Shown here: in pieces, positions 4,411-60,300 of the stretch
Layout: each line of letters begins with the position of its first letter
Numbering within the stretch: the stretch's first letter is position 1
DNA from: a virus
DNA length: 64,000 bases
Virus record (IMG/VR): IMGVR_UViG_3300045971_000895
Location: 64,001-128,000 of that record
Reading direction: 5' to 3' (one strand)
The notes under the pieces: model-generated
What the model saw: only the letters and a program-made list of their open reading frames with translations
Databases searched by the model: none
Told to the model about the DNA's origin: nothing
Program-made: the position numbers and the translations under genes

Positions 4411-7400
4411 ATGGCACAGGCCGAACTGAAGACCTTCGTAGAGGACCGCCTTCAGGCGCTGATCCCCGGCATCGACGTCTCGGCCGGATCTCCGGCGCAG
4501 ACGACCTTCGTCGATCCCCTGATGAGGTACTTGGGGACGGACCCCTTCGAGACGGACATCGACAAGTTCCTCTCGGACCGCTTCCGTCAGGAGTACCCCG
4601 ACATCTACGCCGGCGACCCGAGCGCCATTCGCGATCTCTTCGTGAAGCCGCTCATCACTTTCCTCGAGCCGCTCAAGCGGGAGATCCTGACCGTTCGCAG
4701 GAACCAGTCTCTGAAGGATCCAACGGTGCTCTCGGACGATGACGCCGATGCATTGGTGGCCAACTTCTACGACCAGCGTGCCCAAGGAGCCCTCGCCGGC
4801 GGGACCGTTCGAGCCTACTACTCCAACCCCGCCAACGTTCCCATCGAAGTCACCGTCCGCTTCGCCACGGCCGGCGGCCTCGGGTTCTTCCCGACTGCCT
4901 CCACATCCATCACCGCAGAAGAGATGGTGTTCAACCGGGACGGCGCTCTCTACTACGCTGACATCCCGGTGAAGGCCGAGAAGGAGGGCACGGCGTACAA
5001 CGTCGCCGCAGGATCCATCGTCAACGTCGATGGGCTCTTCGGGGTCGTGAAGGTTACGAACCTTCAAGTCTTCCAGAGCGGGGCCGACAAGATCTCTACG
5101 GACGCCTTCGTCTCTCAGTCCCGTGAGGCGCTGAACGAGAGGTCGCTGCTCAACCGCCGAGGCGCCGTTCCTCGCCTGCGTGACGCCTTCCCGGGCCAGC
5201 TTCGCGCCGTCCAGGTCATCGGCGCGCAAGACGCAGAGATGCAGCGGGACATCTTGGTGGGGCACACCAAGGGCCACACCTGGCTCACGGGAAGAGTCAC
5301 GCTCTACGAGAACATGGCCCTGGTGCAGGCGCGCACCGTGGACGACGGAGCAGAGTCAGCTCCGGTCGCGGGCGACACGCTCTACGTCTACCTCAACAAG
5401 ACTTCCTGGCCCTCTGGGATCTTGCAGAAGGACAGGTTCGTGGAGCTCACCATCGAGGAGACGGTACTCGATGGCATCGGCGGCTCTGGGGCATACCAGT
5501 GCAGCTTCTTGGTGAGGTGGTCTGGTTCCCTCCCGACGGGAATCACTACGCCCCTCTCTGCTGAGGGAGGTTGCGCAAGGAAGGGCACGATCTCCATCAC
5601 TTCGATCCCCGGCATCGGAGCGATCACCGTCGAGGCCCCGGACCGGACGGTGCACGTCTACGGGCACACCGACATCTATGTGCGGCCCTCCGCCGACGTA
5701 GTGGCGAAGTCGGTACTGTCTCCAGTCGTCGATGCCTCTCCGATCATGGAGTACACGACGCTGTCCACCGCGAACTCGGTGCCCACCAACTGGGTGATGG
5801 ATGCGGGGGAGGACGGGAACACCTTCAAGGACTTCGCGGTGGCGGGCGTCTTGCCTGGGGATGTTCTCTACATCGAGTCGGGTGACGCTGCTGGCACCTA
5901 CACCATCGCCGACATCACTGGATCCGGCCCCAGCTCGAGGCTCCTCCTCACCACCAACGTCGAGCGGACGGCAGACAAGGCGCGGTATCGAATCTCCCGC
6001 ACCGTAAAGGTCGATCTCTTCAGCCCCAAGATCCCGAAGCTCCCCTTCTCCGACTTGCCGGCCAACGATCTCACCACGCAGATCGGATCGCTGCTCTTCT
6101 CCTTCGCCACGAACACCGTCAACTACGGTGTTCGCGTTGGTGACACCGTTCGCATCACTTCTGGCCCGGATGTGGGGGACTTCAAGATCACCGGCTTCGA
6201 CAGCGTCCTCGGTGGTCGTGGTGTTCTGGTGGACCGTCGAGCTACCGCAACTGTCGCAGGACTCAAGTACGAGATCTTCACGCCGCTCGAGCCGGTGCAG
6301 AAGCCTCTCATCCGCATCAAGGAGGTCATGCTCCTCGACTCCTCGAAGAAGGCTACCGGAGTCACGGTGCCTCCTGCGCTTCCTGTGGCGGTTCGGTCTG
6401 TAAGCGACTTCACCTCGGCCAGCACCAAGGGGCGCAGTTACCAGAGTGGCGGGATCGTTCTCCCCAAGCTCGACACGATCTTCACCACGACGAATGTGGC
6501 CCTGGCCCCTTCTTCCATAGGTGACCGCAGGTACTCCACGGGAAGCGAGCCGCTCAACGGCGGGCACTACAAGACCTTCTGCACGGACAACACCGCATTC
6601 ACGATGACGGAGATGCTCATCCCCGCCTCCGCCTATGACTCGTGCTCGTGGTTCCTTGCCTTGGTCGAGGACATCGACGCCACGGAAGCCAAGCCCCCAG
6701 TGACCTTCGAGGTCGGTGGGGTACTCAACCTTCTGAGCGGGCCGAACAAGGGCGGGTACTTGATCAAGGAGGTCGTGAAGTTCCGTTACTACCCTCCGGC
6801 GCCTAACTACGTCCCGCACTGGCTCACCTTCGTTCGCATCCACGGGGAGTTCCCTTCGGACACCTTCCGTACCGTCATCGACTTCTTGGCGGCCAACCCG
6901 GTGAGCTTCCCCGGCATCCCGTTCCTGCGCGGTCTGGTCGATGGCAGCGCGGTGTTCGAGTTCCTGTTCCGAGACGTCTTCTGGAACCAGCTCCCAGACT
7001 GGATGAACGAGTCCATCGGCTTGCTGGGCGGTTCGCCTCCAGGCACGACAGCGGCTGCACTCGACACCCTCCTCACCACGGACTACGAGGTGGGCACCCC
7101 TGCCAAGGGAGTCCTTCGCTCCTACTTCCAGCAGCCAACCCTCTTCGAGCAAAGCACCGCAGAGTCCCCTACTCCTACGACCTACGACTTCAAGGCCGTC
7201 ACGGGAGACATCCTCTCCTACCGTCCCGACCCCTTCCGCTACGAAGAGCAGAACATCCTCCCGGCCCGGGAAGCCGCAGATGTCGATGTGTTCAGCTTCC
7301 CCAGAGACGTGCTGCCAGGCAACCCCTTGGCGGACAGCGGGACGACGGCGGCCTTCTCCCTCACGGACAAGCCCAGCGTCTTCTCTATGGGGGTTCGTCC

Positions 7401-8910
7401 GGGTGACCTGCTGGAGTTGTATGAAGAGAAGCCCTTCTTCGCCGTCAACGATTACTCCGACCTGGTGGGCGTCATCACGGAGGTCGACAGCCCGAAGGTG
7501 ACTCGTCCTGCATCGGCTCCGGCGTTTGATCCCTCGCTGGGCGGCTTGCTGTTCTCCATTGTGGACGGTCCGGATGCTGGCCTCTACCGCATCATCGACG
7601 TGCCGGATTCGTACACGTTGGTGCTCGACCGGCCGCTGACTACTTCGACTCCGGAGATTCTCGCCCACGCTTCGAGCGTCTCCTTCGGGTATGGGTTCGG
7701 GCCCGGCATGGGGGGCATGGAGGACCGTATCGGCGCGCCCGGGATCGATTTCTCCCAGCACATCAATCGCTACGTCTCTCTCTACTGCACACACGCGAGT
7801 ACGCATCGCGTGTACCTCGCAGGATCGTTCCGAATCAAGAGTGTCGTTTCCGGTAACGTCAACATGGCTGTGGTTGAACGTACCGCTTTCTTCCCGAGTC
7901 CCTTCGGAGCCGACTCCAGGGCCTGTGTTGTCGTCACTGACGCACCTGCGTCGGCCCCAGAGGCCCGGAGCGGTGCCCAGAGTGGGACGGGTACAGAGGT
8001 TGTTGGCGTCCGGCTGGCACGCTTCTACCAGGACCTGCCCACGCTTCGGACCATCGTCTCGATCGGGTCCGACATTCTCACTTCCACCGTCACCGTCGAT
8101 ACGGCCTTCGGAGCCGGCATCAACAACCCCTACCGCGTCTACCGGAAGGATGTTCGGCGGGTGGGTGCGATGGAGATGTCGGAGAAGAAGGAGAGTTCTC
8201 TCTACTACTTCGACACCGAGGTGATCTCCCTCTCCCCAAGCCTGGCGGCGAACATTCCTGCCAACTCCTACCTCGTGCCGAGGGAGGGGACCTTCGTCTC
8301 CAACGGCTACAAGCACATCGTCGACGACCGGACTCTGACCTATTCGACCAAGGAAGAAGGGAAGCTCGAGCTGCCGCTCCGCATCATCCCTCCCTTCAGC
8401 GCAGACAGGTTGGACAACGCGCTCTCGGTCCCAGGAGCTTCGCTCCAGATCACCTACGACATGTCGACAGTCGTGGAGAGCGTCCAAACCTTCATCGGCT
8501 CCGTCGAGGATCGAGTCACCGCGGCGAACATGCTCGCCAGGCACTTCCTCCCGTCCTACGCCTCTTACGATGCGACGTACCTCGGAGGATCATCTCCGGA
8601 CGTCATCGCGAAGGACATCATCTCCTACATCGAGAGCCTCCCTGTGGAGACTCCCCTCGACGTCTCGGTGGTGCAGGACCTCATCGCCAATCGGGGAGGG
8701 AACCTCCTGACCCCCTCGGCGGTCGTGACCATCATGCACGACTGGAGTCGGAGGATGTGGATGGAGATGTCGCAAAACGAGATTGGAGGAACGAGATCGG
8801 CGGTCCCTTACGATGGGTCCTCTCGAGTCACGTTCTTCGTCCCGGGAGCGGACATCTCACTGAAGACGACGGAGCCCTACGGGGAGCGCATCAAGCTCGT
8901 GAGGAAGTGA
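4411..8910 (+). CDS. giant virion/tail protein (1499 aa) with repeated ~45-aa GD-x-V-x-I...G-x-Y-x-I modules
   Basis: Long ORF with RBS GGGGTAA. Internal repeats, e.g. VLPGDVLYIESGDAAGTYTIADI, VRVGDTVRITSGPDVGDFKITGF, VRPGDLLELY, IVDGPDAGLYRIIDV. Confidence 0.55.
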   Translation: MAQAELKTFVEDRLQALIPGIDVSAGSPAQTTFVDPLMRYLGTDPFETDIDKFLSDRFRQEYPDIYAGDPSAIRDLFVKPLITFLEPLKREILTVRRNQSLKDPTVLSDDDADALVANFYDQRAQGALAGGTVRAYYSNPANVPIEVTVRFATAGGLGFFPTASTSITAEEMVFNRDGALYYADIPVKAEKEGTAYNVAAGSIVNVDGLFGVVKVTNLQVFQSGADKISTDAFVSQSREALNERSLLNRRGAVPRLRDAFPGQLRAVQVIGAQDAEMQRDILVGHTKGHTWLTGRVTLYENMALVQARTVDDGAESAPVAGDTLYVYLNKTSWPSGILQKDRFVELTIEETVLDGIGGSGAYQCSFLVRWSGSLPTGITTPLSAEGGCARKGTISITSIPGIGAITVEAPDRTVHVYGHTDIYVRPSADVVAKSVLSPVVDASPIMEYTTLSTANSVPTNWVMDAGEDGNTFKDFAVAGVLPGDVLYIESGDAAGTYTIADITGSGPSSRLLLTTNVERTADKARYRISRTVKVDLFSPKIPKLPFSDLPANDLTTQIGSLLFSFATNTVNYGVRVGDTVRITSGPDVGDFKITGFDSVLGGRGVLVDRRATATVAGLKYEIFTPLEPVQKPLIRIKEVMLLDSSKKATGVTVPPALPVAVRSVSDFTSASTKGRSYQSGGIVLPKLDTIFTTTNVALAPSSIGDRRYSTGSEPLNGGHYKTFCTDNTAFTMTEMLIPASAYDSCSWFLALVEDIDATEAKPPVTFEVGGVLNLLSGPNKGGYLIKEVVKFRYYPPAPNYVPHWLTFVRIHGEFPSDTFRTVIDFLAANPVSFPGIPFLRGLVDGSAVFEFLFRDVFWNQLPDWMNESIGLLGGSPPGTTAAALDTLLTTDYEVGTPAKGVLRSYFQQPTLFEQSTAESPTPTTYDFKAVTGDILSYRPDPFRYEEQNILPAREAADVDVFSFPRDVLPGNPLADSGTTAAFSLTDKPSVFSMGVRPGDLLELYEEKPFFAVNDYSDLVGVITEVDSPKVTRPASAPAFDPSLGGLLFSIVDGPDAGLYRIIDVPDSYTLVLDRPLTTSTPEILAHASSVSFGYGFGPGMGGMEDRIGAPGIDFSQHINRYVSLYCTHASTHRVYLAGSFRIKSVVSGNVNMAVVERTAFFPSPFGADSRACVVVTDAPASAPEARSGAQSGTGTEVVGVRLARFYQDLPTLRTIVSIGSDILTSTVTVDTAFGAGINNPYRVYRKDVRRVGAMEMSEKKESSLYYFDTEVISLSPSLAANIPANSYLVPREGTFVSNGYKHIVDDRTLTYSTKEEGKLELPLRIIPPFSADRLDNALSVPGASLQITYDMSTVVESVQTFIGSVEDRVTAANMLARHFLPSYASYDATYLGGSSPDVIAKDIISYIESLPVETPLDVSVVQDLIANRGGNLLTPSAVVTIMHDWSRRMWMEMSQNEIGGTRSAVPYDGSSRVTFFVPGADISLKTTEPYGERIKLVRK

Positions 8911-16455: not shown

Positions 16456-19400
16456 ATGTCGATGGACTTCTACAGGCGGCCGCAGCTTGCCGGTACCGCT
16501 CTCCGATTCCCTGACTACCCGATGCTGCGGGGGTCTGTGCATCGCCACGACCCAGACGGTGTGTCGTCTGCGCCATACTTCCCTCTCGCGACGGGTGGGG
16601 ACCTCACGCTCCTGGTTGACGGCACGCCCTTCACTGTCACGCTGACGGCGAATCCCTCGGCGCAGACGGTCGTCACGGCCATCAATGCCGTGATCTCCAG
16701 CAAGGGCTACGCTTACGACGAAGGGGGCGTGGTGCACGTCCGAACCCTGTCGAGGGTCGGCAGCGTCGAGGTGACGGGCACCCCGAGCGTGGCTCTTGCC
16801 CTCGGATTCGACCTGAGGCTGGGAGCACTGCGTACCTACGCTGGTGATGTGGCAGGCGCTGGAGAGGGCAGGATCAACAACCTCTTCGGCGCAGTGATGC
16901 CCGTCCCCGGCGAGAGTCTCAACTCTGAGAGCTTCGTTCGCGCACTGGCTCGCCTCTCAGCGAACCTGGACGTCCTGCTGTCGGACGGGAACAGGACGAC
17001 CCCGCAGTTCGTGGAGTGGGGGACGGTCACCTCCATCGATGACACCTCCGGCAACTACTCTCTCGTTTCGATCACACCGAACGCTCCATACGTCGGGCTC
17101 GGCGTCTCCAATGGCCTGGGCTCCTTGCGTGCAGGGGTCACTCTCGTCAAGGCCGCGATCGCTCCCTTCTTCTACCTGACCGCCGCTTCGGGCTATTACC
17201 CGTCCCCACACCAGGCGGTCGGTGTGGTGAAGGCCGCGTTCTTGTCCGAGCTCACTGGGGCCGCTCCCTACGCCAATGCCACCTCCGCAGCCGGTCCCGG
17301 GAATGTCTTCGGGCTCAGCTTGGTGAAGGCAGGCCCCTACCAGATCGATGAGATCCTCGGTGGTCGAGTCGTCTACCGCTCCGGCGGTTTCGGCGCCGCG
17401 CGAGTGGGCGACTACGTAGAGATCCGTCCCGACGCCAACACCACGAAGCTCCCGTGGGCCAACAACGGCATTCGCTGGAAGGTGGAGGCCGTCATCGGGA
17501 ACGGGCTGAGCCTGGCTCCGCTGTCGAAGGCAGAGCTCACCGATGCGGGACTTTCCGGGGCCAATGAGGTCCAACCGATCGTCAGCCTCAACGGCACGCG
17601 AGGCAACACCGAGAACTTCGGCGGGCTCTACCTCTGGACGGGCCCCACCATCGACGCTCCAAAGCTCGTAGTCTCACCCCCGATGGCTCCCTCCGCCATT
17701 GGCACTGTGGTGTGGGCAGCCGTTCCCTCCTCCCCACGTTCCCGAGCGCACGGCGAGGGGATGAACAACCCTGCCTTGAACATCCTCGCGCAAGGGTTCC
17801 CCCACAACGATGTCATCGTCACCAAGGGGACGATGTCGCTCACCGTGGGCACTCTTACGGTCTCCGGGATGGTGATCCGGAAGAACGGGTTCCGTAACGA
17901 CGTGAGTTCGACGCTCACAGGGCTGGGCAGCTACACCGGCTACATCATCCTCACAACCTCTGGTGCCGCGACTCTTGCGACATCCGCCGGCACTTTGCTG
18001 CCCGGCACCGGCATCCCTATCGCCAAGGTGGTCAGCGGCGCCATCACGCACGACCTACGCATCGCCGGAGAAGTCACGGAGCATGTGACCGTGGGCGGGG
18101 CCTACGCGATGCTCCCCGACATCCAGACGGCGATCTACTACTGCGCGCTGCGCGCTGTCGACGTGACGGAGATCGTCGTCACCTACGACCAAGCGAGCCC
18201 AGTCGGTGGATGGGTTACCGCGGGGTATCCCATCATGATTCGGGGGGAGAACCCTTCAATCTCTCTGGCGAGGAACGGGAGCAGTCCGCTCCTCACCTCG
18301 TCCGACTCCCAGAAGGTCATCCTCAAGAACCTCACCCTCCCGGTCTCCGACCCCAAGGTTGGGGAGCTCTTCGTCTCTCCCAGCAGCACCATCTTCGCCG
18401 TCGACTGCTTCGACTCGATCACGGGTGATCTCGTCTCGATGGCAAACCTCTCCACCGGAGTCGGTGGAGAGGTGGCCATCTACGGCGGACAGGGGACGCT
18501 CAGCCTCTTCGGAGCGACCAGCACTCGCGTCGGAGATGGGTCCATCACCGTGTACCTCGGCACCAACGCCACTACGGTGAGCCTCGGAGGCGCGAGTACC
18601 TCGACGGTGGTCCTCGGCACCCTGGCGGTGACGTTGTCGATCTCCGGAGCAAGCATCACGGTCACGGGAAGCGCCCAAGCGTCGACGCTCATCGGCACCA
18701 CCAAGGTCTCCACTCCGGTGGTCGAGGGCTATGCGGGAACGCTTAGCCTCTTCGGGACAACCTCCACGACCGTGGGCACCGGGTCCGCCAACACGTACGT
18801 GGGAGTCTCCAACGTTGGTGTCTACCTTGGGACCAACGCCACCTTGGTGGCCATTGGCGCGGTGTCTACGACGGTTTCCGGAACCTTGGCAGTGACCCAG
18901 TCGATCTCTTCTTCCTCGGCCACGGTCACCAACGCCAACGGCACCGTGAGTCTCGTGGACGGAAGCGCAATCCTCACTAGGGGGTTGCGCGTCGGAGCCG
19001 CGGGAGCGGCCCCAGCTACAGGAGAGGCGATCCTCTCTGCGAAGCTCACGGTCCCCGTGATCGAGAGCGGCTACGTGCCGGCGCAGAGCGTGAGCGGAGT
19101 GGTCATCGCGTTCACTGTCGAGTCTTTCCAGATGAGCCTGACCGATGTCGCCAAGTTCCGGACGGGGGACACTGTCACTGACACCCTTAACGCAGATGAC
19201 CATGGCGTGATCACCGGTATCAACTACTCCACCGGCTGGGTGACGACCGATCCTGGAGGGCTGTGGACGTCTTGGGAGACGGGGCACACCCTCACGGCCA
19301 ACCAAGCCACGATTGGGGTCTCCCCGCTGACTCTCCGGGCCAACACGGTGGGGGACGGGCCCGTCCGCGTGGCACCAAAGGATGGTCCGAAGACTGACAC

Positions 19401-20826
19401 CTCTCCGCTCTTCCGTGTCGCCAATGATGTGGCCGCGAGCGTGCCCGTCATGGACGTCACCAAGGACGGATTCACCCTCTACGAAAACGGCTCCCAGTAC
19501 ACGTCCATGGAGCTCATCGAACGGATCTGGAGAAGGATCGCCAGGTACGGGACGGTTGGGTCGGCCGGCGTCCAGTACTTCTGGCGCGGCAACATCTCGG
19601 CTCAGGTCATGGGGGGCTGCCCCAACATCACCAAGCTGACGGCCACGAAGCAGGTCTGGGACACCACCCTCAAGGCGGGTGCTCTCCTGCTCACGTTGCA
19701 GCCTTCCTCGAACTCGGACAACCTCGAGGCGATGCGGCACGCCACGGTCGAGTGGTACACGATGGACCGGGCCTGGGACCGCAGCACGTACCCGACCCAG
19801 TACAAGGACACCGGAGGGACGAACGGCACGGTCAGTGCGGTGCTTCTCAAGTCCTTCCACTCGATCTCAGATCGGCTCTTCGCGTCGCTCACCTCATCGG
19901 ATGCGGTGAACGCAACCGGCATCACGGCAACCATGTGCCTCCCCACCATGGGAGCGGGCACCGTACCGGCTGCCCGCATCACCATCTACAACGCCTTCGG
20001 GGGCTCCAGCACCTACTGGTTCGTCACCACCACGACGGACTCGACGCTCTACATGATCCCGGGCGGCGCCGGCTTGCCGACGCCACTCCCTGACGTCTAC
20101 CTGACTCCTGCTGCGCAGACCGTCTGGCAGAACGACGGAGAGACCGCGTTCCTCTCCATCGTGGGAGGGACTGGTCCATTCACTCTCTCCACCCCCACAG
20201 GTGGTGCGAATGGCCACTGGATCACGTCCAGCCCGACGGCGAGCAGGTCGGTATCGTGGCAGCCGACTGCGGCGTCCTTCCCCTCCGGCGCTACCGTCCA
20301 GGTGACCGACGCCAACGGCAAGACGGCGACCGCGACCATCACCGTCAATGACACCGCCGCAGGCGCGGACCCAGTAACGGACTGCTGCCTCTGTGTGGTG
20401 CCAGGCACTCCAATCCTCCTGCCCGACAATCGGGTGGTGGCGGTCGAGACCCTCAAGGTGGGAGACCAGGTCTGGACCAAGCCAGACTCCGGAGTCGACG
20501 TCTGGGGATCCTTCCCGATCAAGGCTGTGAACATCAACAAGCTTCCCATCGTTCGAGTGGAGCTCGAGGACGGGCGCATCCTTCGCGTCACCCCGAGCCA
20601 TCGCTTCTTCTCGGGTGGTGGTTGGCTCATGGCCTACGACCTCGAGCCCGGAGAGATCCTCGATGGCTCGCAGCCTGGGGTGGTGAAGCAGATCGTGGAT
20701 GAGAAGGTCACCGCCGTGACCGTGTCCATCACCGTGGCGGGGGCCAGGACCTACGTGTCCGATGGGCTCCTCTCGCACAACATCTCGAACCCGCACTGCC
20801 CCGGCGGCCTCAACGCGGGCTGCTAA
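16456..20826 (+). CDS. tail fibre/receptor-binding-like giant protein (1456 aa) with C-terminal Hint (intein-like) autoprocessing domain
   Basis: RBS GGAGTGA. Ser/Thr/Gly/Val-rich beta-structure and an internal 81-aa tandem repeat. The C-terminus begins with Cys (DCCLCVVPGTPILLPDN..), has a TxxH block (RVTPSH), and ends ...VSDGLLSHN-ISNPHCPGGLNAGC. Confidence 0.6.
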   Translation: MSMDFYRRPQLAGTALRFPDYPMLRGSVHRHDPDGVSSAPYFPLATGGDLTLLVDGTPFTVTLTANPSAQTVVTAINAVISSKGYAYDEGGVVHVRTLSRVGSVEVTGTPSVALALGFDLRLGALRTYAGDVAGAGEGRINNLFGAVMPVPGESLNSESFVRALARLSANLDVLLSDGNRTTPQFVEWGTVTSIDDTSGNYSLVSITPNAPYVGLGVSNGLGSLRAGVTLVKAAIAPFFYLTAASGYYPSPHQAVGVVKAAFLSELTGAAPYANATSAAGPGNVFGLSLVKAGPYQIDEILGGRVVYRSGGFGAARVGDYVEIRPDANTTKLPWANNGIRWKVEAVIGNGLSLAPLSKAELTDAGLSGANEVQPIVSLNGTRGNTENFGGLYLWTGPTIDAPKLVVSPPMAPSAIGTVVWAAVPSSPRSRAHGEGMNNPALNILAQGFPHNDVIVTKGTMSLTVGTLTVSGMVIRKNGFRNDVSSTLTGLGSYTGYIILTTSGAATLATSAGTLLPGTGIPIAKVVSGAITHDLRIAGEVTEHVTVGGAYAMLPDIQTAIYYCALRAVDVTEIVVTYDQASPVGGWVTAGYPIMIRGENPSISLARNGSSPLLTSSDSQKVILKNLTLPVSDPKVGELFVSPSSTIFAVDCFDSITGDLVSMANLSTGVGGEVAIYGGQGTLSLFGATSTRVGDGSITVYLGTNATTVSLGGASTSTVVLGTLAVTLSISGASITVTGSAQASTLIGTTKVSTPVVEGYAGTLSLFGTTSTTVGTGSANTYVGVSNVGVYLGTNATLVAIGAVSTTVSGTLAVTQSISSSSATVTNANGTVSLVDGSAILTRGLRVGAAGAAPATGEAILSAKLTVPVIESGYVPAQSVSGVVIAFTVESFQMSLTDVAKFRTGDTVTDTLNADDHGVITGINYSTGWVTTDPGGLWTSWETGHTLTANQATIGVSPLTLRANTVGDGPVRVAPKDGPKTDTSPLFRVANDVAASVPVMDVTKDGFTLYENGSQYTSMELIERIWRRIARYGTVGSAGVQYFWRGNISAQVMGGCPNITKLTATKQVWDTTLKAGALLLTLQPSSNSDNLEAMRHATVEWYTMDRAWDRSTYPTQYKDTGGTNGTVSAVLLKSFHSISDRLFASLTSSDAVNATGITATMCLPTMGAGTVPAARITIYNAFGGSSTYWFVTTTTDSTLYMIPGGAGLPTPLPDVYLTPAAQTVWQNDGETAFLSIVGGTGPFTLSTPTGGANGHWITSSPTASRSVSWQPTAASFPSGATVQVTDANGKTATATITVNDTAAGADPVTDCCLCVVPGTPILLPDNRVVAVETLKVGDQVWTKPDSGVDVWGSFPIKAVNINKLPIVRVELEDGRILRVTPSHRFFSGGGWLMAYDLEPGEILDGSQPGVVKQIVDEKVTAVTVSITVAGARTYVSDGLLSHNISNPHCPGGLNAGC
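18493..18960 (+). repeat. in-frame tandem repeat (two ~81-aa units: GTLSLFG[AT]TST.VG.GS...YLGTNAT.V..G..ST.V.GTLAVT.SIS) within the fibre gene
   Basis: Unit 1 spans 18493-18735 and unit 2 starts at 18736 (offset 243 nt). Unit 2 carries a short insertion. Confidence 0.5.
20383..20826 (+). other. Hint/intein-like domain at the C-terminus of the fibre protein
   Basis: N-terminal Cys block, TxxH block, and a terminal HN followed by a short 14-aa tail. Confidence 0.5.
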
Positions 20827-20838
20827 TAAGGAGGAAGT

Positions 20839-21180
20839 ATGAAGGCCAAGGCGACGTACAAGCAGTTCCAGAAGGGCATCAAGCCCTACAAGCAGAGCAT
20901 TCGTGCCTTCTTGGGCTGGCTCTCCGGTCTGCTGCTCCAGATCATCCCGCAGGGCGGCTACGACGCGGCCATCACCTGGCCCTGGAAGAAGTGGGCCTTC
21001 ACCCTCGGGGTCGCCGCCATTCCCGGCTTCATGGGTCTCATGAAGGGTGGGGACACCAACCCCACCGACGAGGAGATGTTCGAGAAGGTGCGTGCCGTGA
21101 AGCTGGCCAAGAAGGCGGCCGCCGGCGTGGAGACCACCGGAGAGCTTCCTCTTCCTGCCCCCGTCTTGCCCAAGGACTGA
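20839..21180 (+). CDS. small membrane protein, holin-like (2 predicted TM helices)
   Basis: Strong RBS AAGGAGGA. Hydrophobic segments AFLGWLSGLLLQIIP and WAFTLGVAAIPGFMGLM. Charged C-terminus. Confidence 0.4.
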   Translation: MKAKATYKQFQKGIKPYKQSIRAFLGWLSGLLLQIIPQGGYDAAITWPWKKWAFTLGVAAIPGFMGLMKGGDTNPTDEEMFEKVRAVKLAKKAAAGVETTGELPLPAPVLPKD

Positions 21181-21181
21181 C

Positions 21182-21544
21182 ATGGCAGACCTTCCGCGCA
21201 TCCTCTGGGGAATGACCTACACCCAAGCGACCTGGGTGTTCCTCGGCGTCGCTCTGCTCATCGTCGAGGTCATCGCGCTCGTCCGGGGCGACCCGCCGCT
21301 CACCGACGCGATGAGGAGTGGTGCAGAGAGGTGGATGCTGTGGCCCGCGCTCTGGGGCACCCTCTGCGGCCACTTCTTCGGCAGCAAGGGCGGCCCCGCC
21401 TGGGGGCCCTTCATCCTCATCGGCCTCGCCCTCCTCGTCATCTACCGAGACTTCTTCCTCCGTGACCGCGTGCCCTCCGCCACGCACCTCGAGGTCTGCC
21501 TCATCTTCATGGGCCTCGGGGCCTGGCTCTGGGGGAGCCGGTGA
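21182..21544 (+). CDS. polytopic membrane protein (3-4 TM), second holin/antiholin candidate
   Basis: Several hydrophobic helices, e.g. WVFLGVALLIVEVIALV, FILIGLALLVIY and LIFMGLGAWLWG. Confidence 0.4.
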   Translation: MADLPRILWGMTYTQATWVFLGVALLIVEVIALVRGDPPLTDAMRSGAERWMLWPALWGTLCGHFFGSKGGPAWGPFILIGLALLVIYRDFFLRDRVPSATHLEVCLIFMGLGAWLWGSR

Positions 21545-22305
21545 TCTCCTTCGAGAAGGTCAAGCCCTTCATCCCGTGGGTGCCGGTGATACTGCTGGCG
21601 GTGGCCATCTTCCTTTTCGTCTCCGCGCTCAACCGGGCCCGTTCCGCAGAGGACGCGTTGGGCAAGGCGGAGGAGAGGGAGAAGCTGCTCAAGGCCAACC
21701 TCACCGTGGAGGCTGAGAGGTCGAAGAAGGACCTCACCGCGGCCGAGAAGCTCATCGCCAGCAAGGATGCCGACTTCACCGCGGAGCGGGCGAAGCTCTG
21801 GAAGGCGCTGGGCGAGAAGCCCAAGGTCATCACGGTGGTGGAGTGGCGGACCATCCCAAGCCCCACCCTCCCCGCGGCGCCAGGCACGCCGGCTCGGGAG
21901 TGTCCCGTGGCGGGCCCGGATGGGAAGAAGCCGGACATCTTGGTGGTGGAGGGCGACACGGGGCACGTCGAGATCTCCGAGGTCACCTACGAGACCAAGA
22001 ACAACAACCACGTCTTCATCGGTACGGGCTCCTGCTGGCGCGACACACCGACCGGCCGGAAGCTCTGGGCAAGTGCTGTGCAGGGACAGGCGCCTGTGGC
22101 ATTGAGAGAGAAGGAGCCCACACCGTTCCGCTGGGGAGTTGGCGGCACCGTGGTGGCTACGTCAGACAAGCTGGGGGCGGGACCGGTTCTACTCTTCCCT
22201 CCATTCGAGACGTGGGGGCTCCAGTGGGATGGTTCAGCTGGCGCCGCCTTCAGCGCCAAAGGATTCGTTGCCGCACAGGGCCAGCTCGGGGTGCGGTGGA
22301 GATAG
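21541..22305 (+). CDS. N-terminal TM plus coiled-coil protein (spanin-like?)
   Basis: GTGA overlap with the upstream gene. N-terminal TM (FIPWVPVILLAVAIFLFVSAL) followed by a K/E/A-rich helical region. Confidence 0.3.
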   Translation: MISFEKVKPFIPWVPVILLAVAIFLFVSALNRARSAEDALGKAEEREKLLKANLTVEAERSKKDLTAAEKLIASKDADFTAERAKLWKALGEKPKVITVVEWRTIPSPTLPAAPGTPARECPVAGPDGKKPDILVVEGDTGHVEISEVTYETKNNNHVFIGTGSCWRDTPTGRKLWASAVQGQAPVALREKEPTPFRWGVGGTVVATSDKLGAGPVLLFPPFETWGLQWDGSAGAAFSAKGFVAAQGQLGVRWR

Positions 22306-22350
22306 CGGCCTCCCGCAGGATTGGCCTGCGGGGTAACAAGGAGGTCGCAG

Positions 22351-22656
22351 ATGGACAGGAAGCTCGAGGTTGGCAGCAGCATCATCTTCGTGGATGCGAA
22401 GGCGGTTCGTCACAACGCGCTGGTCACCATCGTGTGGGATCAGGTGGCCGAGTACGCGGGTCGCTGGGAGAAGGACGCCGAGGGCAAGGATGTCTGGAAG
22501 CAGGTCTCGGCATGGCCCGGTTGCAACCTGGTCTTCATCAGTGGGGACCCGGAGCGCAAGGACTCGTGTGGTCGGCAGATGGAGCGCCAGACCAGCGTGA
22601 TTCACAAGACGATGCAGCCCGCCCACGGGATGTACTGGTGCTGGCCGGATGAGTAG
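22351..22656 (+). CDS. hypothetical protein (101 aa)
   Basis: Strong RBS AAGGAGG 6 nt before ATG 22351. The track ORF begins at 22321, but this ATG fits the RBS better. Confidence 0.35.
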   Translation: MDRKLEVGSSIIFVDAKAVRHNALVTIVWDQVAEYAGRWEKDAEGKDVWKQVSAWPGCNLVFISGDPERKDSCGRQMERQTSVIHKTMQPAHGMYWCWPDE

Positions 22657-22721
22657 CCACTAGGGGCGAACGGGAACCTTCCAATGGGACCTGGGACCTC
22701 CACTATCTGCGACCACCAATC

Positions 22722-23198
22722 ATGTTGAAACTCGCCAAGGTCAGACCTCACCAACAGGAGACGCAGCGGACCTGCTCTGCGGCCTGCCTTCGCGCCGTGC
22801 TGCTGCACCATGGTAAGGATGTCCCAGAGGCCTTGCTGGCGAAGGCCATCGGAGTAGCGCACTACGGGGCCGAGCTCTACCAGATCGTGGGGGCGGCGCG
22901 GGCGTTGGGGTTCACAGCGAAGCAAGTCGAGTTCAAGAGCTTGTCGGACGCCTTCAAGCTCCTCGAGCAGGACGTCCCCCTCATCTGCGATGTGCAGAGC
23001 TGGACGAAGAAGGGGAGCGGGCACTACGTCGTTCTCGTGAACGAGAGCGGCGGCCGGGTCAACATCATGGACCCGAACGTCTCAGGCAACTGGCGCACCT
23101 TGTCCGTGAAGGACTTCGATGAGCGCTGGTGGGACGGAGACAACGTCTACAGGGGTCGTGTACTTCGTCGGCCTGCTGTCATCGTTCGACCGAGGTAA
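22722..23198 (+). CDS. papain-like cysteine peptidase, C39-like domain (possible lysis or processing peptidase)
   Basis: Q-x6-C-S-A-A-C-L motif (QQETQRTCSAACLRAVL), a downstream GHYVVL His block and an Asp. Confidence 0.5.
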   Translation: MLKLAKVRPHQQETQRTCSAACLRAVLLHHGKDVPEALLAKAIGVAHYGAELYQIVGAARALGFTAKQVEFKSLSDAFKLLEQDVPLICDVQSWTKKGSGHYVVLVNESGGRVNIMDPNVSGNWRTLSVKDFDERWWDGDNVYRGRVLRRPAVIVRPR

Positions 23199-54312: not shown

Positions 54313-57300
54313 TTGGACGAGAACATCCAGCCTGAGCAGGCCTTCGAGTCGCTCAAGAAGAACACGCTCGAAGCCATCAAGTCCTACTTCCCAGACGGCA
54401 AGTACGCTGGCAGGAAGCAAAGCATCCACCTCACCAACCTGCGCGTCGAGGACAACCTCAAGTCCGACGACGTCTCTTCGCAGACCGAGGTGAAGGACAA
54501 GGACGGAACCTGGGGCGTCCCCATCAAGGCCGACATGAAGCTCGTGGACAACACCACGGGCAAGGTGATCGACGAGACGAAGGGCTCCATCCTCGCCCGG
54601 CTCCCCAAGCTGACCAACCGCTACAGCTACATCGTCAACGGCAGCGAGTACCAGGTCGACCACCTGTTCCGCCTGAAGAGCGGCATCTACGCCCGGGTGC
54701 AGGACAACGGTGAGCTCGAGTCGGAGTTCAACCTGGCGAAGGGTGGTCGCCCCTTCTCGGTCCACCTCGACCCCGTGAAGCGCAAGCTGTCGATGAAGTA
54801 CGGCAACTCCCACATCCCGCTCTACCCGATCATGAAGAGCCTCGGGGTGGCGGACGACGACATCGAGAAGAGCTGGGGCAAGGCACTCTTCGAGGCCAAC
54901 AAGCCGAAGACCGACGAGAAGTTCAATGGCTCTCTCGCCAAGCTCGTGAAGCTGGTCTCCGAGGAGCCTGTACCTGCTGACCTCTCCCCCGACGACCTGC
55001 ACAAGCACGTCAACTCCTTCTTCAACCAGCTCTCCGTCCGCCCCGACACCACGAAGCTCACGCTCGGGGAAGCGCACGAGGCGGTGACCGGGAAGACCCT
55101 GCTCCAGGCGGCGCACAAGCTGCTCGGTGTCTCTCGCGGCACGCACCAGCCCGACGACCGCGACAGCCTCGCCTTCAAGGAGACTGCCAGCATCGAGGAC
55201 TTCATCCCCGAGAAGATCCTCCGCGCCGGCGCGCGTACCATCCGGCCCAGGCTTCGCCAGACCATCGACCAGAAGCAGTCGGTCCGAGACATCGTCGCCT
55301 CCAACCTCTTCGGCCGCCCGGTGGGCGAGTTCTTCACGAAGGGCGGCTCGGTGGCGGAACGGTCCGAGCAGACCAACCCCATCCAGATGCTCTCAGCCCA
55401 CCGCAAGACCACGCTCATGTCGCGGGACTTCGGCGGCATCAAGAGCGAGAACTCCCTCACCGAGGGGATGCAGACCATCAACCAGAGCCACTTCGGCTTC
55501 CTGGACCCGATGCACACGCCGGAAGGCGAGAAGATCGGCATCACCCTCCACCTCGCTTCCCACGTCCGGAAGAACGGGAAGGACCTCGAGATCCCCGTCT
55601 TCGACACTCACACAGGGAAGTCCACCTGGGTGAACGCCGTCGACTTCCACGGGGCAGATGCCGTGCTCCCGGACCAGGTGACCTGGGTCGACGGCAAGCC
55701 CAAGCCCATCTCCGCCACGGTCCGCACCAAGACCTCTGGCGGCGACATCGTCAACAAGCCCTTCAAGGACTCGCGCTACGTCATGCCCTCCACCAAGGGC
55801 ATGTGGAACTACGCCTCCAACCTCGTCCCCTTCCTGTCGGCCGACAACGGCAACCGCATCATGATGGCCGACAAGCAGATGGAGCAGGCCATCGGCCTGA
55901 AGCACCGAGAGGTGCCGCTGGTTCAGTCGAAGACGGACCATGGCGATCCCGAGCACACCTTCGAGAAGCTCTTGGGGCACTTCATCGCCTCCCGTGCGCC
56001 CGCCGCGGGGAAGGTCTCGTCCATCAAGGGAGACGTCGTTCACATCGCTGGAGACGACGGCAAGAAGCATGAGGTCCACCTCTACAACAACTTCCCCCTG
56101 AACGATGCGAAGGGGATGCTGCACTCGGACCTGACCGTGAAGGTCGGCGACAAGGTTCGCAAGGGCCAGGTGGTAGCCGACAACAACTTCACCAAGGACG
56201 GCAGCCTCGCCATCGGTACCAACCTGCGGGTCGGCTACATCCCGTACAAGGGCTACAACTTCGAGGACGGCATCGTCATCTCGGAGAGCGCGGCGAAGAA
56301 ACTGACCTCCGAGCACCTGCACAAGAAGATCGTCGAGATCGACCCCGACAACGACCACATCGGCAAGGCGAAGTACCAGGCGTGGGCCATCTCGGAGTCG
56401 CAGGCCATGCCCAAGGCGTACCTCGACGCCCTCGAGGACAACGGCGTCGTGAAGGTCGGCACCAAGGTGAAGCCAGGCCAGGTGCTCGTCGCCGCCATCG
56501 GGAAGAACGACACCAAGAAGGCGTCGCTCATGTCGGCCTACGGCAACAAGCGCGCCTTCAAGCCGGTGAAGAACAAGTCGATGGTCTGGGACGAGGACCA
56601 CGAGGGAACCGTCACCAAGGTGGTGCACGACCCGCAGGGCCGCGGCGTGCGCGTCTACGTCCGCACCGACGAGCCCGTCGTCATCGGCGACAAGCTCACC
56701 GGCCGGCACGGCAACAAGGGCATCGTCTCGCTGATCCTGCCTGACCACGAGATGCCCTTCACGAAGAACGCCAAGGGGGAGCGGGAGTCGCTGCACGTCC
56801 TCCTCAATCCGTCAGGCATCCCCTCCCGCATCAACCCCGGCCAGATGCTGGAGACTGCCGCAGGGAAGATCGCCGAGAAGACGGGCAAGCCCTACATCGT
56901 CGACAACTTCGGTGACGCCCACTCCGACCACCGCACCAAGCTGGAGAAGGAGCTGAAGGCTCACGGGATCACGGACGAGGAGACTGTCTACGACCCGAGC
57001 GATACTCGCCGCGCCCTCGGCTCCGTGCTGGTCGGTCCTCAGTACGTCCTGAAGCTGAAGCACCAGGTGGAGAAGAAGGTCTCGGCTCGAGGCGGAGGGA
57101 CGGACGTCAACGGGCGGAAGCTCGCCGTCGACACCGACCAGCAGCCGGTGAAGGGCGGCGAGCACGGCGGTCAGGGCTTCGGCGCTCTCGAGATGTACTC
57201 GCTGCTCGGCCACAACGCCCGGCACAACATCCGGGAGATGTCGACCTACAAGAGCGACAACCAGGACATGCTCTTCTGGAACATGATCCAGAACGGGCAC

Positions 57301-60300
57301 GAGCCGCCGCCCCCCACTGTCCCCTTCAGCTACCGGAAGTTCGAGGGCCTGCTCCGTGGGCTTGGCGTCAACGTGACGAAGGACGGGACCTCCGTCCGCA
57401 TCCATCCCATCACCAACAAGGAAGTCCTGCGCCTCACCGGGAACCGGGAACTGAAGGACGCAGCGAAGACCCTCCGCTCCAAGGACCTGAAGCCTGTCCC
57501 GGGCGGCCTCTTCGATGAGCAGCTCACCGGTGGCCTCGACGGCGACAAGTGGTCCCACATCAAGCTCGACGAGCCGGTACCCAACCCCATCTTCTGTGGC
57601 GGCGGCAACCAGCCCGGACCTGTGCCTGTTCTCCTCGGCCTCAAGATGAAGGAGTTCGAGGACGTCATGGCGGGGAAGCACTCGATCGGAGGGCTGACCG
57701 GTGGCGCAGCCGTCGAGGCGGCCCTCAAGAAGGTCGACGTCCACAAGGAAGTCGACGCCTTGAAGAGAGCCCTGCCAGGGCTGCGCGCCGACGAGCTGGA
57801 CCGGGCCAACAAGAAGCTCAAGTACCTGCTCGCGCTGAAGGACTTGGACCTCAAGCCCCACGACGCCTACATGATGCACTACGTTCCGGTGGTGCCTCCG
57901 AAGTTCCGTCCGGCCTCGGCCACCCCCTCGGGCGACGTGAACTACTCCCCGCTCAACGGGCACTACAAGAACATCAGCCTCATCAACGAGCACCTCCGCA
58001 ACTTCGACTCGGCCCACTTCGACGACAAGCACAAGCAGCCGCTCCGCACCCAGCTCTGGGACGCCATGAAGGCGCTCCAGGCGGTGGGCACTCATCGAGA
58101 GGTCTACGACACGGACCAGAGCGGCGACCGAGCCCTGAAGGGCATCCTCGACATCATCGGCGGCAAGCCAGGAGTGGAGCAGCCGAAGGAGGGCTACTTC
58201 CAGTCGAAGCTGGTGAAGCGCCGGCAGAACCTCTCTGTCCGCTCGACCATCGTCCCTGAACCGAAGTTGGGCATCGACGAGGTCGGTCTCCCCAAGGGCG
58301 CGGCGATGGAGATGTACAAGCCCTACGTCGTGGCCCAGCTCCAGAAGTGGAACTTCCACCCGCTGGCGGCGCAGGACGAGATCAAGAAGATGACCCCCAT
58401 CGCCTTCCGCGCGCTGGAGAAGGTCGTGGTGGATCGTCCTCTGCTCTTGAAGCGTGATCCGGTGCTGCACAAGTTCGGAGTCATGGCCTTCAAGCCGAAG
58501 CTGGTGGAGGGCAAGGCCATCCAGATCCACCCGCTGGTCTGCGGTGGCTTCAACGCCGACTTCGACGGAGACACGATGGCCGGCACCATCCCCATGTCCA
58601 GAGAGGCCGTGGAGGAAGCGAAGAAGCTCTTCCCTTCCAACAACCTCTTCAGCCCCACCAACTACGGGGCGATGTACCTGCCGGCCAACGAGGCCCTGCT
58701 GGGGCTCCACCTCCTCTCGAAGTGGGGCAAGAAGACAGGCAAGACGTTCGCCAACACGACCGAACTCAACAAGGCCGTGGACGAAGGCCATGCAGATGTC
58801 ACGGACGTCGTCCACCTGAAGGGCATGAAGGAGCCCACCACGCTGGGCCGGCTACTCCTCGAGTCGCGCCTCCCTCGTGGCTACTCCCAGAACTCGAAGG
58901 TCCTCCACAACAGCGAGTTCGAGTTCTCGAAGAGAGAGCTGAAGAAGATGGCCCCGGAGATCGCCAACAAGCACCGGGACCACTACGCCAACACCGTCGA
59001 CTCCCTGAAGAACCTCGGCAACGAGTGGTCCTACAAGCTGGGCTTCTCCATCGGCCTCAAGGATCTGAAGACCATCCCCCAGCGTGACGCCATCATCGGC
59101 AGGGCCGAGAAGAAGGTGCATGAGCTGTCGAGCAAGGGAGAGGCCCACGACGCCGACGTCATCCGCATCTACCAGGGAGCCACGGGAGAGATCGAGGAAG
59201 CCCAGAAACTCCTACACGGCGGGCCGACGCAGGGAGACCACCGCCTTGCCCAGATGGTCTTCTCCGGTGCTCGAGGTGATGCTTCCCAGCTTCGCCAGAT
59301 GATCGCAGCCCCCATGCTGGTGGAGAGTTCCTCCGGCAAGGTGGTGCCCTACCCGCTCAAGCGCTCCTTCGCAGAGGGTCTCGACATCGGGGACTTCTGG
59401 ATGTACCAGCACGGCGCCCGCAAGGGCATGATCCAGAAGGGCCGCGGCACAGCAGACCCTGGCGCCATCACCAAGGACATCATCAACGCCTCCATGTCGA
59501 CCCTCATCGTCTCTCCGGACTGCGGGACGAAGGAAGGTGTTCACATGAAGGTCAACGACGAGGACATCCACGACCGCTACTTGGCGGCTCCCTACAAGCT
59601 GAAGGACGGCACCCACATCAAGGCTGGAGAACTTCTCACGCCTGCCGTGCTCTCTCGGCTCAAGAACTCGAAGATCGAGACGGTCTCCGTCCGCAGCGCG
59701 TTGAAGTGCGCTCACGGAGATGGGATGTGCGCGAAGTGCTTCGGCCTGAATGAGTCCGGAGTTCTCCACAGCAACGGGACCAACATCGGCATCCTGGCCA
59801 GCCAGGCCATGGGAGAGCCGTCGACCCAGCTCTCGATGCGGGCCTTCCACACGGGCGGCGTCGCCGGGTCAGCGGCCGGCAAGTCGATGGACGCCATCAC
59901 CCGTCTCCGCAACCTCCTCGAGATGCCGAAGCGGATCCGGGATGAGGCCACGGTGTCGATGGCGACCGGCAAGGTCAGCGCGGTCCGCAAGGACCCAGCC
60001 GGCGGCGCCGACATCATCGTCACCAGCTACCACAACGACCAGCCGGTGGAGACGAAGCACTACATCCCCCGGCACCTCATCAACGAGGACATCAAGGTGG
60101 GGTCGCAGGTGAAGAGGGGCGACAAGCTCTCTGGTGGGTTCGTCAACCCGCACCGGCTCCTCGAGTCGACGAAGAGCATCCACGCCGTGCAGAACTACCT
60201 GACCGATGAACTCCACGATGGGCTGTTCAAGGGGCTCGGGGTGCGACGCAGGAACATCGAGGTGGCGGTTCGCAACATCACCAACCTGACCAAGGTGAAG

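Follow-up and report, generated by a model that had tools for sequence, protein, structure and literature searches.

We analysed a 64,000-nucleotide stretch of viral DNA (the window; positions 64,001 to 128,000 of IMG/VR virus record IMGVR_UViG_3300045971_000895), in which an open reading frame (ORF) encodes a 1456-amino-acid baseplate-associated fibre that ends in a Hint domain. The features of the gene are listed in Table 1. The fibre showed 100% identity to a JGI metagenome protein, for which the longest contig on record measures ~198 kb. Translation of positions 20383–20826 gave CCLCVVPGTPILLPDN, the block RVTPSH, and LLSHN followed by ISNPHCPGGLNAGC, and sequence, profile, and structure model together confirmed that the last 144 residues of the fibre are a genuine Hint domain. 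A first-pass annotation of this DNA had placed a Hint module in the last ~145 residues of the protein, and the motifs, the profile matches, and the AlphaFold2/Foldseek results bore this out.

Table 1. Features of the fibre gene and its Hint domain (positions in the window; residues numbered from the start of the fibre)
Feature	Position	Strand	Remarks
Carrier gene	16456..20826	+	ORF, 1456 amino acids; N-extein is residues 1-1312; baseplate-associated fibre / receptor-binding-type protein
Conserved N-terminal (attachment) portion	16456..18726	+	Common to fibre homologues P0004-P0009
Probable Ig-like beta-sandwich domain before Hint, residues ~1263-1307	20242..20376	+	Tentative; sub-threshold Pfam matches FlgD_ig (0.0042) and Big_9 (0.0048)
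N-terminal junction, C1310-C1311-L1312 / C1313	20383..20394	+	Read from sequence; predicted scissile bond L1312-C1313
Hint domain proper, C1313-N1442	20392..20781	+	130 amino acids, mini-intein size; no endonuclease insert
Block B, T1379-P-S-H1382	20590..20601	+	Family Thr/Ser column T 78 / S 71 of 154; His 153/154
Terminal H1441-N1442, Asn cyclisation site	20776..20781	+	His-Asn 154/154; predicted second scissile bond N1442-I1443
14-residue tail, ISNPHCPGGLNAGC	20782..20823	+	+1 Ile (no nucleophile); Cys at +6 and +14
Tandem stops TAA TAA, AGGAGG ribosome-binding site, ATG of next gene	20824..20841	+	Next gene encodes a 113-amino-acid small protein

With residues 1300–1456 of the fibre (the last 157) as query, an exhaustive phmmer search recovered 1,800 proteins at E ≤ 1e-3 from 1.84 billion cluster representatives; of these, 131 reached E ≤ 1e-10, and the top non-self match was at 2.9e-25. 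A profile built from 31 relatives, with the fibre itself left out, scored the fibre at 146 bits (E = 5e-38 at Z = 1.8e9), and the highest score that the same profile gave to 2,000 shuffles of the same 147 residues was 8 bits. In single-sequence Pfam scans, the comparison with Hint profiles that the first-pass annotation had proposed yielded only Hint-clan families, all under their gathering scores (PT-HINT, Intein_splicing, Hint_2, and Vint), while NCBIfam TIGR01445 (intein N-terminal splicing region) reached 27.6 bits on the trimmed sequence against a curated cut-off of 24.5. Pfam E-values were ~5e-5 for PT-HINT and ~4e-5 for Intein_splicing, the latter being marginally better on a 152-residue trim.

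The family profile matched the solved Hint protein 8w20 (E = 2e-15), the NpuDnaB intein (2.5e-13), the Clostridium thermocellum bacterial-intein-like (BIL) domain 2lwy (1.7e-12, inteins being matched equally well), the RecA mini-intein (~3e-12), Tetrahymena BUBL BIL2 (2e-11), and Hedgehog (3e-5). An AlphaFold2 model based on the family alignment was all-beta, with a predicted local distance difference test score (pLDDT) of 90.4 and a predicted template modelling score of 0.84, and only its last residues were disordered, the 14-residue tail having a pLDDT below 50. Foldseek searches with this model against the PDB likewise recovered the Hint fold; the top matches were DnaB and RecA mini-inteins, BUBL BIL2, and the C. 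thermocellum domain (CthBIL), with E-values of ~2e-9, template modelling (TM) scores of 0.75–0.82, and root-mean-square deviations (rmsd) of ~2–3 Å, and the match probability was 1.00 for many solved inteins, BILs, and Hedgehog. Word-indexed protein searches gave 2 matches with the fibre sequence and, with the profile, mainly PT-HINT proteins from Paenibacillus and Cohnella. Structural neighbours in BFVD comprised classical inteins and a few entries from uncultured phages auto-named 'Hint domain containing protein'.

To place the catalytic residues, we used a family alignment of 154 full-length domains from the top 150 phmmer matches. Cys1 was conserved in 150 of these domains, the block-B Thr/Ser in 149, the block-B His in 153, and the terminal His-Asn in every one. 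C1313 (nucleotides 20392–20394), the third Cys of a CCLC motif, was identified as the catalytic Cys1 because it occupies the conserved family column and position 1 of the TIGR01445 model. The first-pass annotation had the module begin with a Cys and a strand; Cys1 is indeed present, and the start lies at C1313 rather than at C1310 or C1311. The TxxH block that it had recognised in RVTPSH corresponds to T1379-P-S-H1382, which is predicted to assist the N–S acyl shift, and the HN that it had placed just before a 14-residue tail was found there on translation. The ORF after the fibre gene is in the same reading frame and is separated from it by TAA TAA, AGGAGG, and ATG; the tail is therefore the true C-terminus, and a lost, frameshifted, or read-through C-extein or toxin was ruled out on the same grounds.

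The fibre gene is part of a baseplate module, downstream of the gene for a 1499-amino-acid Baseplate_J / phrog_6 baseplate-wedge protein (4411–8910), which is followed by ORFs of 772, 1425, and 221 amino acids. Six fibre homologues (P0004–P0009) aligned to the N-terminal part only, with best local alignments spanning 29–52% of the fibre (72% identity over 52% for P0004 and 55% over 46% for P0005). Beyond this common portion their C-terminal parts were unrelated, the distal parts of some showing BNR-like or beta-helix-like repeat motifs when the sequences were read by eye, and local phmmer searches found no Hint domain in any of the six. The carrier was labelled receptor-binding-type because the N-terminal part is conserved and the C-terminal parts are unrelated among these homologues. 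Homologues of the N-terminal half (up to 72% identity) are carried by contigs of 150–210 kb, and the combination of a common N-terminal half with swapped distal modules amounts to clear receptor-binding-protein mosaicism among related large phages. Whole-protein scans gave no Pfam or PHROG match for the fibre outside the Hint region, and with a limit of E ≤ 1 the Pfam scan detected no Peptidase_S74 intramolecular-chaperone domain. The name 'fibre', already used in the first-pass annotation, is thus supported by the baseplate context and the homologue pattern, without a direct family match. The GC content of the Hint region (0.62–0.64) equals that of the rest of the gene, so composition is uninformative or negative with regard to recent horizontal acquisition.

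Within the family alignment, we defined the terminal form as a domain with a tail of no more than 20 residues after His-Asn. This form accounted for 63 of the 154 domains (~40%), with tails of 1–19 residues, usually 3–10 and most often 4–5, and was typically preceded by a poly-Gly or Pro linker; typical members had a mean of 5 Gly at positions −12 to −1. A Lys was located within +1 to +3 in 60 of the 63 terminal forms, usually as HN-x-K, and the +1 residue was Ser or Thr in 10, Cys in none, and a non-nucleophile in 53. The subfamily carries the signature C-[PV]-A-P-x-T-P-I-L...A-H-T-Y-V-S-x-G-L-L-S-H-N-x-K, which is mostly missed by Pfam Hint models. The non-terminal domains occurred in tandem arrays (...HN-K-GGG-C...) or were followed by longer extensions. 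In P0011, P0027, P0061, P0070, P0089, P0093, and P0125, 2–5 Hint domains stand head to tail in such arrays, and several of these proteins start with ...ARGGGG-C and have Gly-rich tails after the array; this looks like a self-dicing poly-Hint architecture. A recurrent ~63-residue extension after the Hint (HN-KFYGGLITNVSGPDPAGPDEGQVN..RGEY) was observed in P0087, P0097, P0102, P0117, and P0100, and suggests a small conserved C-extein that may be released or ligated by the Hint in another branch of the family.

Scanning of 46 terminal-form carriers revealed that 15 were Phage-tail_3 / phrog_1101 tail proteins, and others gave matches to central tail fibre J, Rcc01698_C, carbohydrate-binding modules, or collagen. 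The terminal arrangement and a Lys within +1 to +3 were both found at all of 18 further loci from IMG/VR and GTDB genomes, where the carriers were lambda-I-like tail-tip assembly proteins (phrog_32), J-like hub/fibre proteins, phrog_376 tail proteins, phrog_5616 tail fibres, and unclassified proteins. In the lambda-I-like carrier, the phrog_32 profile was matched end to end (positions 3–198 of 203) ahead of the linker, and the Hint there is a pure add-on. Small carriers (P0001, L012–L020) consisted of an adaptor domain, a long Pro/Gly tether, and the Hint. A prophage of Corallococcus carmarthensis CA043D contained two different tail-tip genes, each with a C-terminal Hint cassette. These genes (L019, 719–1777 and 4270–6405, the same as in viral contig L008) encode a lambda-I-like assembly protein and a 711-amino-acid protein, and C. 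carmarthensis is a cultured host in which the Hint chemistry could be tested. A chromosomal gene of Anaeromyxobacter dehalogenans 2CP-1 (protein WP_041450460), auto-named 'phage tail protein' / 'Hedgehog/intein hint domain protein', also belonged to the family.

A tblastn search of 50,697 phage records (INPHARED) with the fibre's Hint and a typical member revealed no cultured-phage example. The sole full-length match was the unannotated gut metagenomic phage MT835519, whose 734-amino-acid tail protein has ...GGGY-C...SHN-IKQQEQLQ as its C-terminal end; otherwise, the search gave partial matches to mycobacteriophage intein/HNH genes. An all-vs-all comparison of ORFs from the window and 16 loci (L003 plus 15 of the 18 fetched loci) showed only lineage-specific synteny and no recurrent partner or acceptor gene. 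A literature search, incomplete in its coverage, found no description of terminal Hint or BIL domains on phage tail proteins, only papers on classical inteins and polymorphic toxins.

The fibre shares the features by which the family is defined, namely a Hint at the extreme C-terminus with a short tail (14 residues), Cys1, T/S-x-x-H, His-Asn, and a baseplate module. Phage tail proteins bear a large and essentially uncharacterised family of such terminal Hint cassettes, of which the one on the fibre is a divergent member. This goes beyond the first-pass annotation, as does the observation that the fibre deviates from the flanking rules of that family. The occurrence of terminal Hint domains on many unrelated tail proteins points to what may be an unstudied way to mature or chemically activate phage tails.

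Part of this deviation concerns Cys residues. The fibre has Cys at −3, −2, 1, +6, and +14 and was alone among the 63 terminal forms in having Cys on both flanks; most members have no flanking Cys at all. C1310-x-x-C1313 has the spacing of a Cys-3/Cys1 pair. A disulfide between these positions acts as a 'redox trap' that blocks N-terminal cleavage, engineered in the Ssp DnaE intein and native in the Pyrococcus abyssi MoaA intein (PMC3922620). The C-x-x-C of the fibre resembles this trap, and the putative disulfide is a lead based on that analogy.

With respect to the kind of Hint, the domain fits best as a catalytically complete, endonuclease-free domain of the type-A BIL kind that caps a phage baseplate fibre. 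Type-A BIL domains reportedly go back to Amitai in 2003 and Dassa in 2004. They are defined by a C-terminal His-Asn without a C'-flanking nucleophile (PMC4031507, PMC7765530), and their chemistry combines a thioester with Asn cyclisation, cleavage products being dominant and the freed alpha-amine being able to ligate (PMC4031507). In the fibre, H1441-N1442 is followed by Ile, and the domain sits where this mosaic fibre is variable, in its C-terminal part, as expected of a BIL in a variable region of a non-conserved protein, with the caveat that the carrier is a phage protein and the Hint is terminal rather than internal. The first-pass annotation had offered a BIL as its alternative, and this proved the more precise label, given the His-Asn, the +1 Ile, and the absence of a C-extein and of a homing endonuclease.

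Other Hint and fibre-maturation classes were considered and rejected. A classical intein was excluded because the +1 residue is Ile1443, there is no C-extein (14 residues and then TAA TAA), there is no endonuclease, and the six homologues lack the module; the homologues are also not contiguous across the site, and the insertion site does not resemble that of a class-1 intein, P0004–P0009 having no Hint and C-terminal halves unrelated to that of the fibre. Membership of PT-HINT (PF07591) was rejected on a score of 23.7–24.0 bits against a gathering cut-off of 27.7 and on the absence of a toxin after the Hint; PF07591 matched 12 of 32 family domains at E ≤ 0.01. A Hedgehog Hog domain was rejected on the presence of His-Asn and on the disordered 14-residue tail in place of an adduct/sterol-recognition region, and an S74 chaperone on the whole-protein Pfam scan described above.

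We consider it rather probable that the Hint is a transient C-terminal pro-domain, which detaches itself from the fibre after thioester formation at L1312–C1313. The protein has the fold, the catalytic residues, the terminal position, and the tail-protein family membership, and it has no C-extein; that cleavage happens, as well as its timing and purpose, we infer. Once the Hint has folded, Cys1313, aided by T1379 and H1382, would attack the L1312 carbonyl in an N–S acyl shift, and the peptide bond between fibre and Hint would become a thioester. H1441 and N1442 would drive Asn cyclisation, by which the 14-residue tail would be cut off, and because the +1 residue is Ile, neither a branched intermediate nor classical splicing could occur. 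The thioester could be resolved by hydrolysis or thiolysis, leaving a mature fibre of residues 1–1312 and a free 130-residue Hint, or the tail could be ligated back through an attack on the thioester by its newly freed alpha-amine, for which type-A BILs offer a precedent. By either route the Hint would leave the fibre, in a role analogous to that of S74 domains, to which it bears no relation. The catalytic residues are near-invariant while carriers and flanks vary freely, which argues for selection for catalysis. The first-pass annotation had suggested a Hint in place of S74 as the self-removing module; the fibre has no S74 domain, so such a substitution is consistent with the data, cleavage itself being presumed.

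Several points weigh against self-removal. The block-F His is replaced by Arg in the fibre (ARTY rather than AHTY), as in several other members. There is no Gly linker, positions −12 to −1 reading AAGADPVTDCCL, and no Lys after His-Asn (ISN... follows), the fibre being one of only 3 of the 63 terminal forms without this Lys; lacking both, it may behave differently from typical members. For every member of the family, cleavage is something that we infer. Moreover, simple N-terminal cleavage needs neither His-Asn nor a Lys tail, and both are conserved, which hints at a coupled or ligation-type reaction. Finally, a chaperone role of the S74 kind does not follow, as Hint domains are monomers on a flexible tether.

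A selfish or neutral passenger, that is, a mini-intein-like cassette at the 3' ends of recombination-prone tail-fibre genes that is tolerated through self-excision, seems unlikely to us. Its catalytic residues would be kept only because failed self-removal would cripple the fibre, so that their intein-like conservation is equally expected here. One cassette type on unrelated carriers, the mini-intein size, the mosaic tail-fibre C-termini in the fibre's own family, and the fact that the fibre alone among its homologues has a Hint are all in keeping with a passenger, whereas no homing endonuclease or other drive is present and the composition gives no sign of recent acquisition. Self-removal by N-terminal cleavage would again leave the His-Asn and the Lys tail unaccounted for, the annotatable carriers are overwhelmingly tail-tip or fibre proteins rather than arbitrary genes, and the Corallococcus prophage has two cassettes in one tail module. 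A retained distal knob that does not process itself and serves as a structural or binding domain, possibly disulfide-locked in the oxidising extracellular milieu, is very unlikely. The Cys pattern unique to the fibre speaks for it, as a Cys-3/Cys1 disulfide blocks N-terminal cleavage in inteins (PMC3922620) and the adjacent N- and C-termini of the Hint would allow flanking Cys to pair; however, synthesis takes place in the reducing cytoplasm, which would keep the trap open, flanking Cys are absent from most members, and a domain with a purely structural role would not be expected to retain the full catalytic set, which is invariant across the family.

The conserved His-Asn, taken as a sign that the tail has a part in the reaction, also leads to a thioester-driven ligation module, in which the activated C-terminus of the fibre would be captured by an amine or hydroxyl to give an (iso)peptide or ester bond without ATP. 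Candidate nucleophiles are a Lys in the tail peptide, some other virion protein, and a component of the host envelope, and the reaction would be comparable to that of BUBL BIL2 and to cholesterol transfer in Hedgehog. BUBL BIL2, which conjugates the upstream Gly C-terminus to the Lys epsilon-amine of its C-extein (PMC8616854), was among the top structural matches (ranks 2–3) and was matched by the profile at 2e-11. The poly-Gly before Cys1 in typical members and the Lys at +1 to +3 in nearly all terminal forms (60/63, and 18/18 at the further loci) recall this arrangement, and the small carriers built of adaptor, tether, and Hint would make more sense if the end of the tether is attached to something. 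We nevertheless regard ligation as unlikely, since the fibre has neither the Gly linker nor the Lys, only 14 residues follow the Hint with no adduct-recognition region, no acceptor or partner gene recurs across loci, and re-joining a 4-residue tail offers no obvious benefit. The same small credence attaches to a broader form of this idea, in which terminal cassettes would be more than self-removing caps, namely ATP-independent ligation devices that covalently lock the tail tip in assembly or adsorption, with the C-x-x-C and the Cys-bearing tail of the fibre adding a redox gate that depends on a reducing compartment. Self-removal remains our preferred reading for the fibre.

Elsewhere in the window, a group of genes on the plus strand 3' of the fibre (20839–23198) encodes the 113-residue protein, a 120-residue DUF456-like protein, a 254-residue protein, and a 158-residue Peptidase_C39 protein (22722–23198; Pfam 3e-18), and possibly forms a cassette for lysis or processing. 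C39 enzymes cleave after Gly-Gly, and poly-Gly precedes Cys1 in typical members of the Hint family, not in the fibre. At 54313–60624 on the plus strand of this phage-like contig, a single 2103-amino-acid ORF encodes a fused beta-beta' multisubunit RNA polymerase, with beta domains (Rpb2 domains 3 and 6) at residues 351–930 followed by beta' domains (Rpb1 domains 1, 2, 3, and 5) at residues 1171–1999. Long ORFs antisense to or overlapping the fibre gene were also observed, such as one of 534 amino acids at 18256–19860 on the minus strand; their Arg/Gly/Pro-rich translations are typical of spurious ORFs in DNA of 63% GC, and they are probably not genes. A six-frame scan of the window revealed no second Hint domain.

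The host range of phages is determined mainly by their receptor-binding proteins, and what is known of how these mature concerns chiefly separate chaperones or S74 intramolecular-chaperone peptidases. A catalytically intact Hint family (1,800 representatives at 50% identity clustering) that caps at least four unrelated classes of tail proteins and is seemingly unstudied widens known BIL biology. If its members cleave themselves, they would provide a second, chemically different route of fibre maturation, and the real C-terminus would differ from the encoded one, which would affect the annotation, expression, and engineering of fibre genes. If they ligate, phage tails would have their first example of covalent chemistry based on a thioester, and the family could supply self-cleaving or ligating tags that are compact and C-terminal by nature.

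Comparison with known systems revealed partial likeness to each of them. S74 domains, as in endosialidase and T5 pb1, are also C-terminal self-removing modules on phage fibres, an analogy of role only: S74 is a trimeric Ser-Lys dyad peptidase that drives trimer folding and is unrelated to Hint in fold and chemistry, whereas Hint is monomeric and joined by a flexible Gly/Pro linker in most family members. PT-HINT (PF07591), one of the two best Pfam matches to the fibre, is an autoproteolytic Hint carried by large filamentous proteins that are secreted or on the surface; it lies near their C-terminus, and some of these carriers have tail-fibre-like repeats (PMC3482391). However, PT-HINT precedes and releases a C-terminal toxin, and in the fibre just 14 residues follow. 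The Hog-Hint of Hedgehog is likewise C-terminal in its precursor, releases an N-terminal functional protein through a Cys1 thioester, and has the same fold (1at0 and 6tyy at TM ~0.72–0.76), but it has a sterol/adduct-recognition region and no His-Asn, whereas the phage module has no adduct region and His-Asn in all 154 domains.

The BUBL BIL2 of Tetrahymena (6y75/6tmm), a top structural neighbour, turns an upstream Gly-rich C-terminus into a thioester that is captured by Lys, and typical members of the phage family likewise are Gly-rich around −1 and have a Lys a short way downstream. It is eukaryotic and lies between ubiquitin-like domains, the fibre lacks both the Gly linker and the Lys, and conjugation by phage members is conjectural. 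Mini-inteins (Ssp/Npu DnaB and Mtu RecA) were the best structural matches (TM 0.75–0.82, rmsd ~2 Å) and share blocks A, B, and G, whereas the fibre has no +1 Cys, Ser, or Thr, no C-extein, and no conserved-site insertion in an essential enzyme. Type-A BILs share with the fibre's Hint the fold (TM 0.75/0.82 to CthBIL 2lwy in Foldseek, profile E of 1.7e-12), Cys1, block B, and His-Asn, the lack of a +1 nucleophile and of an endonuclease, and residence in a surface or extracellular protein that is not conserved, within its variable part. They differ in being internal, between two protein segments, whereas the Hint described here stands at the extreme C-terminus of a phage virion tail protein, with a 14-residue tail, and belongs to a phage subfamily with a signature of its own.

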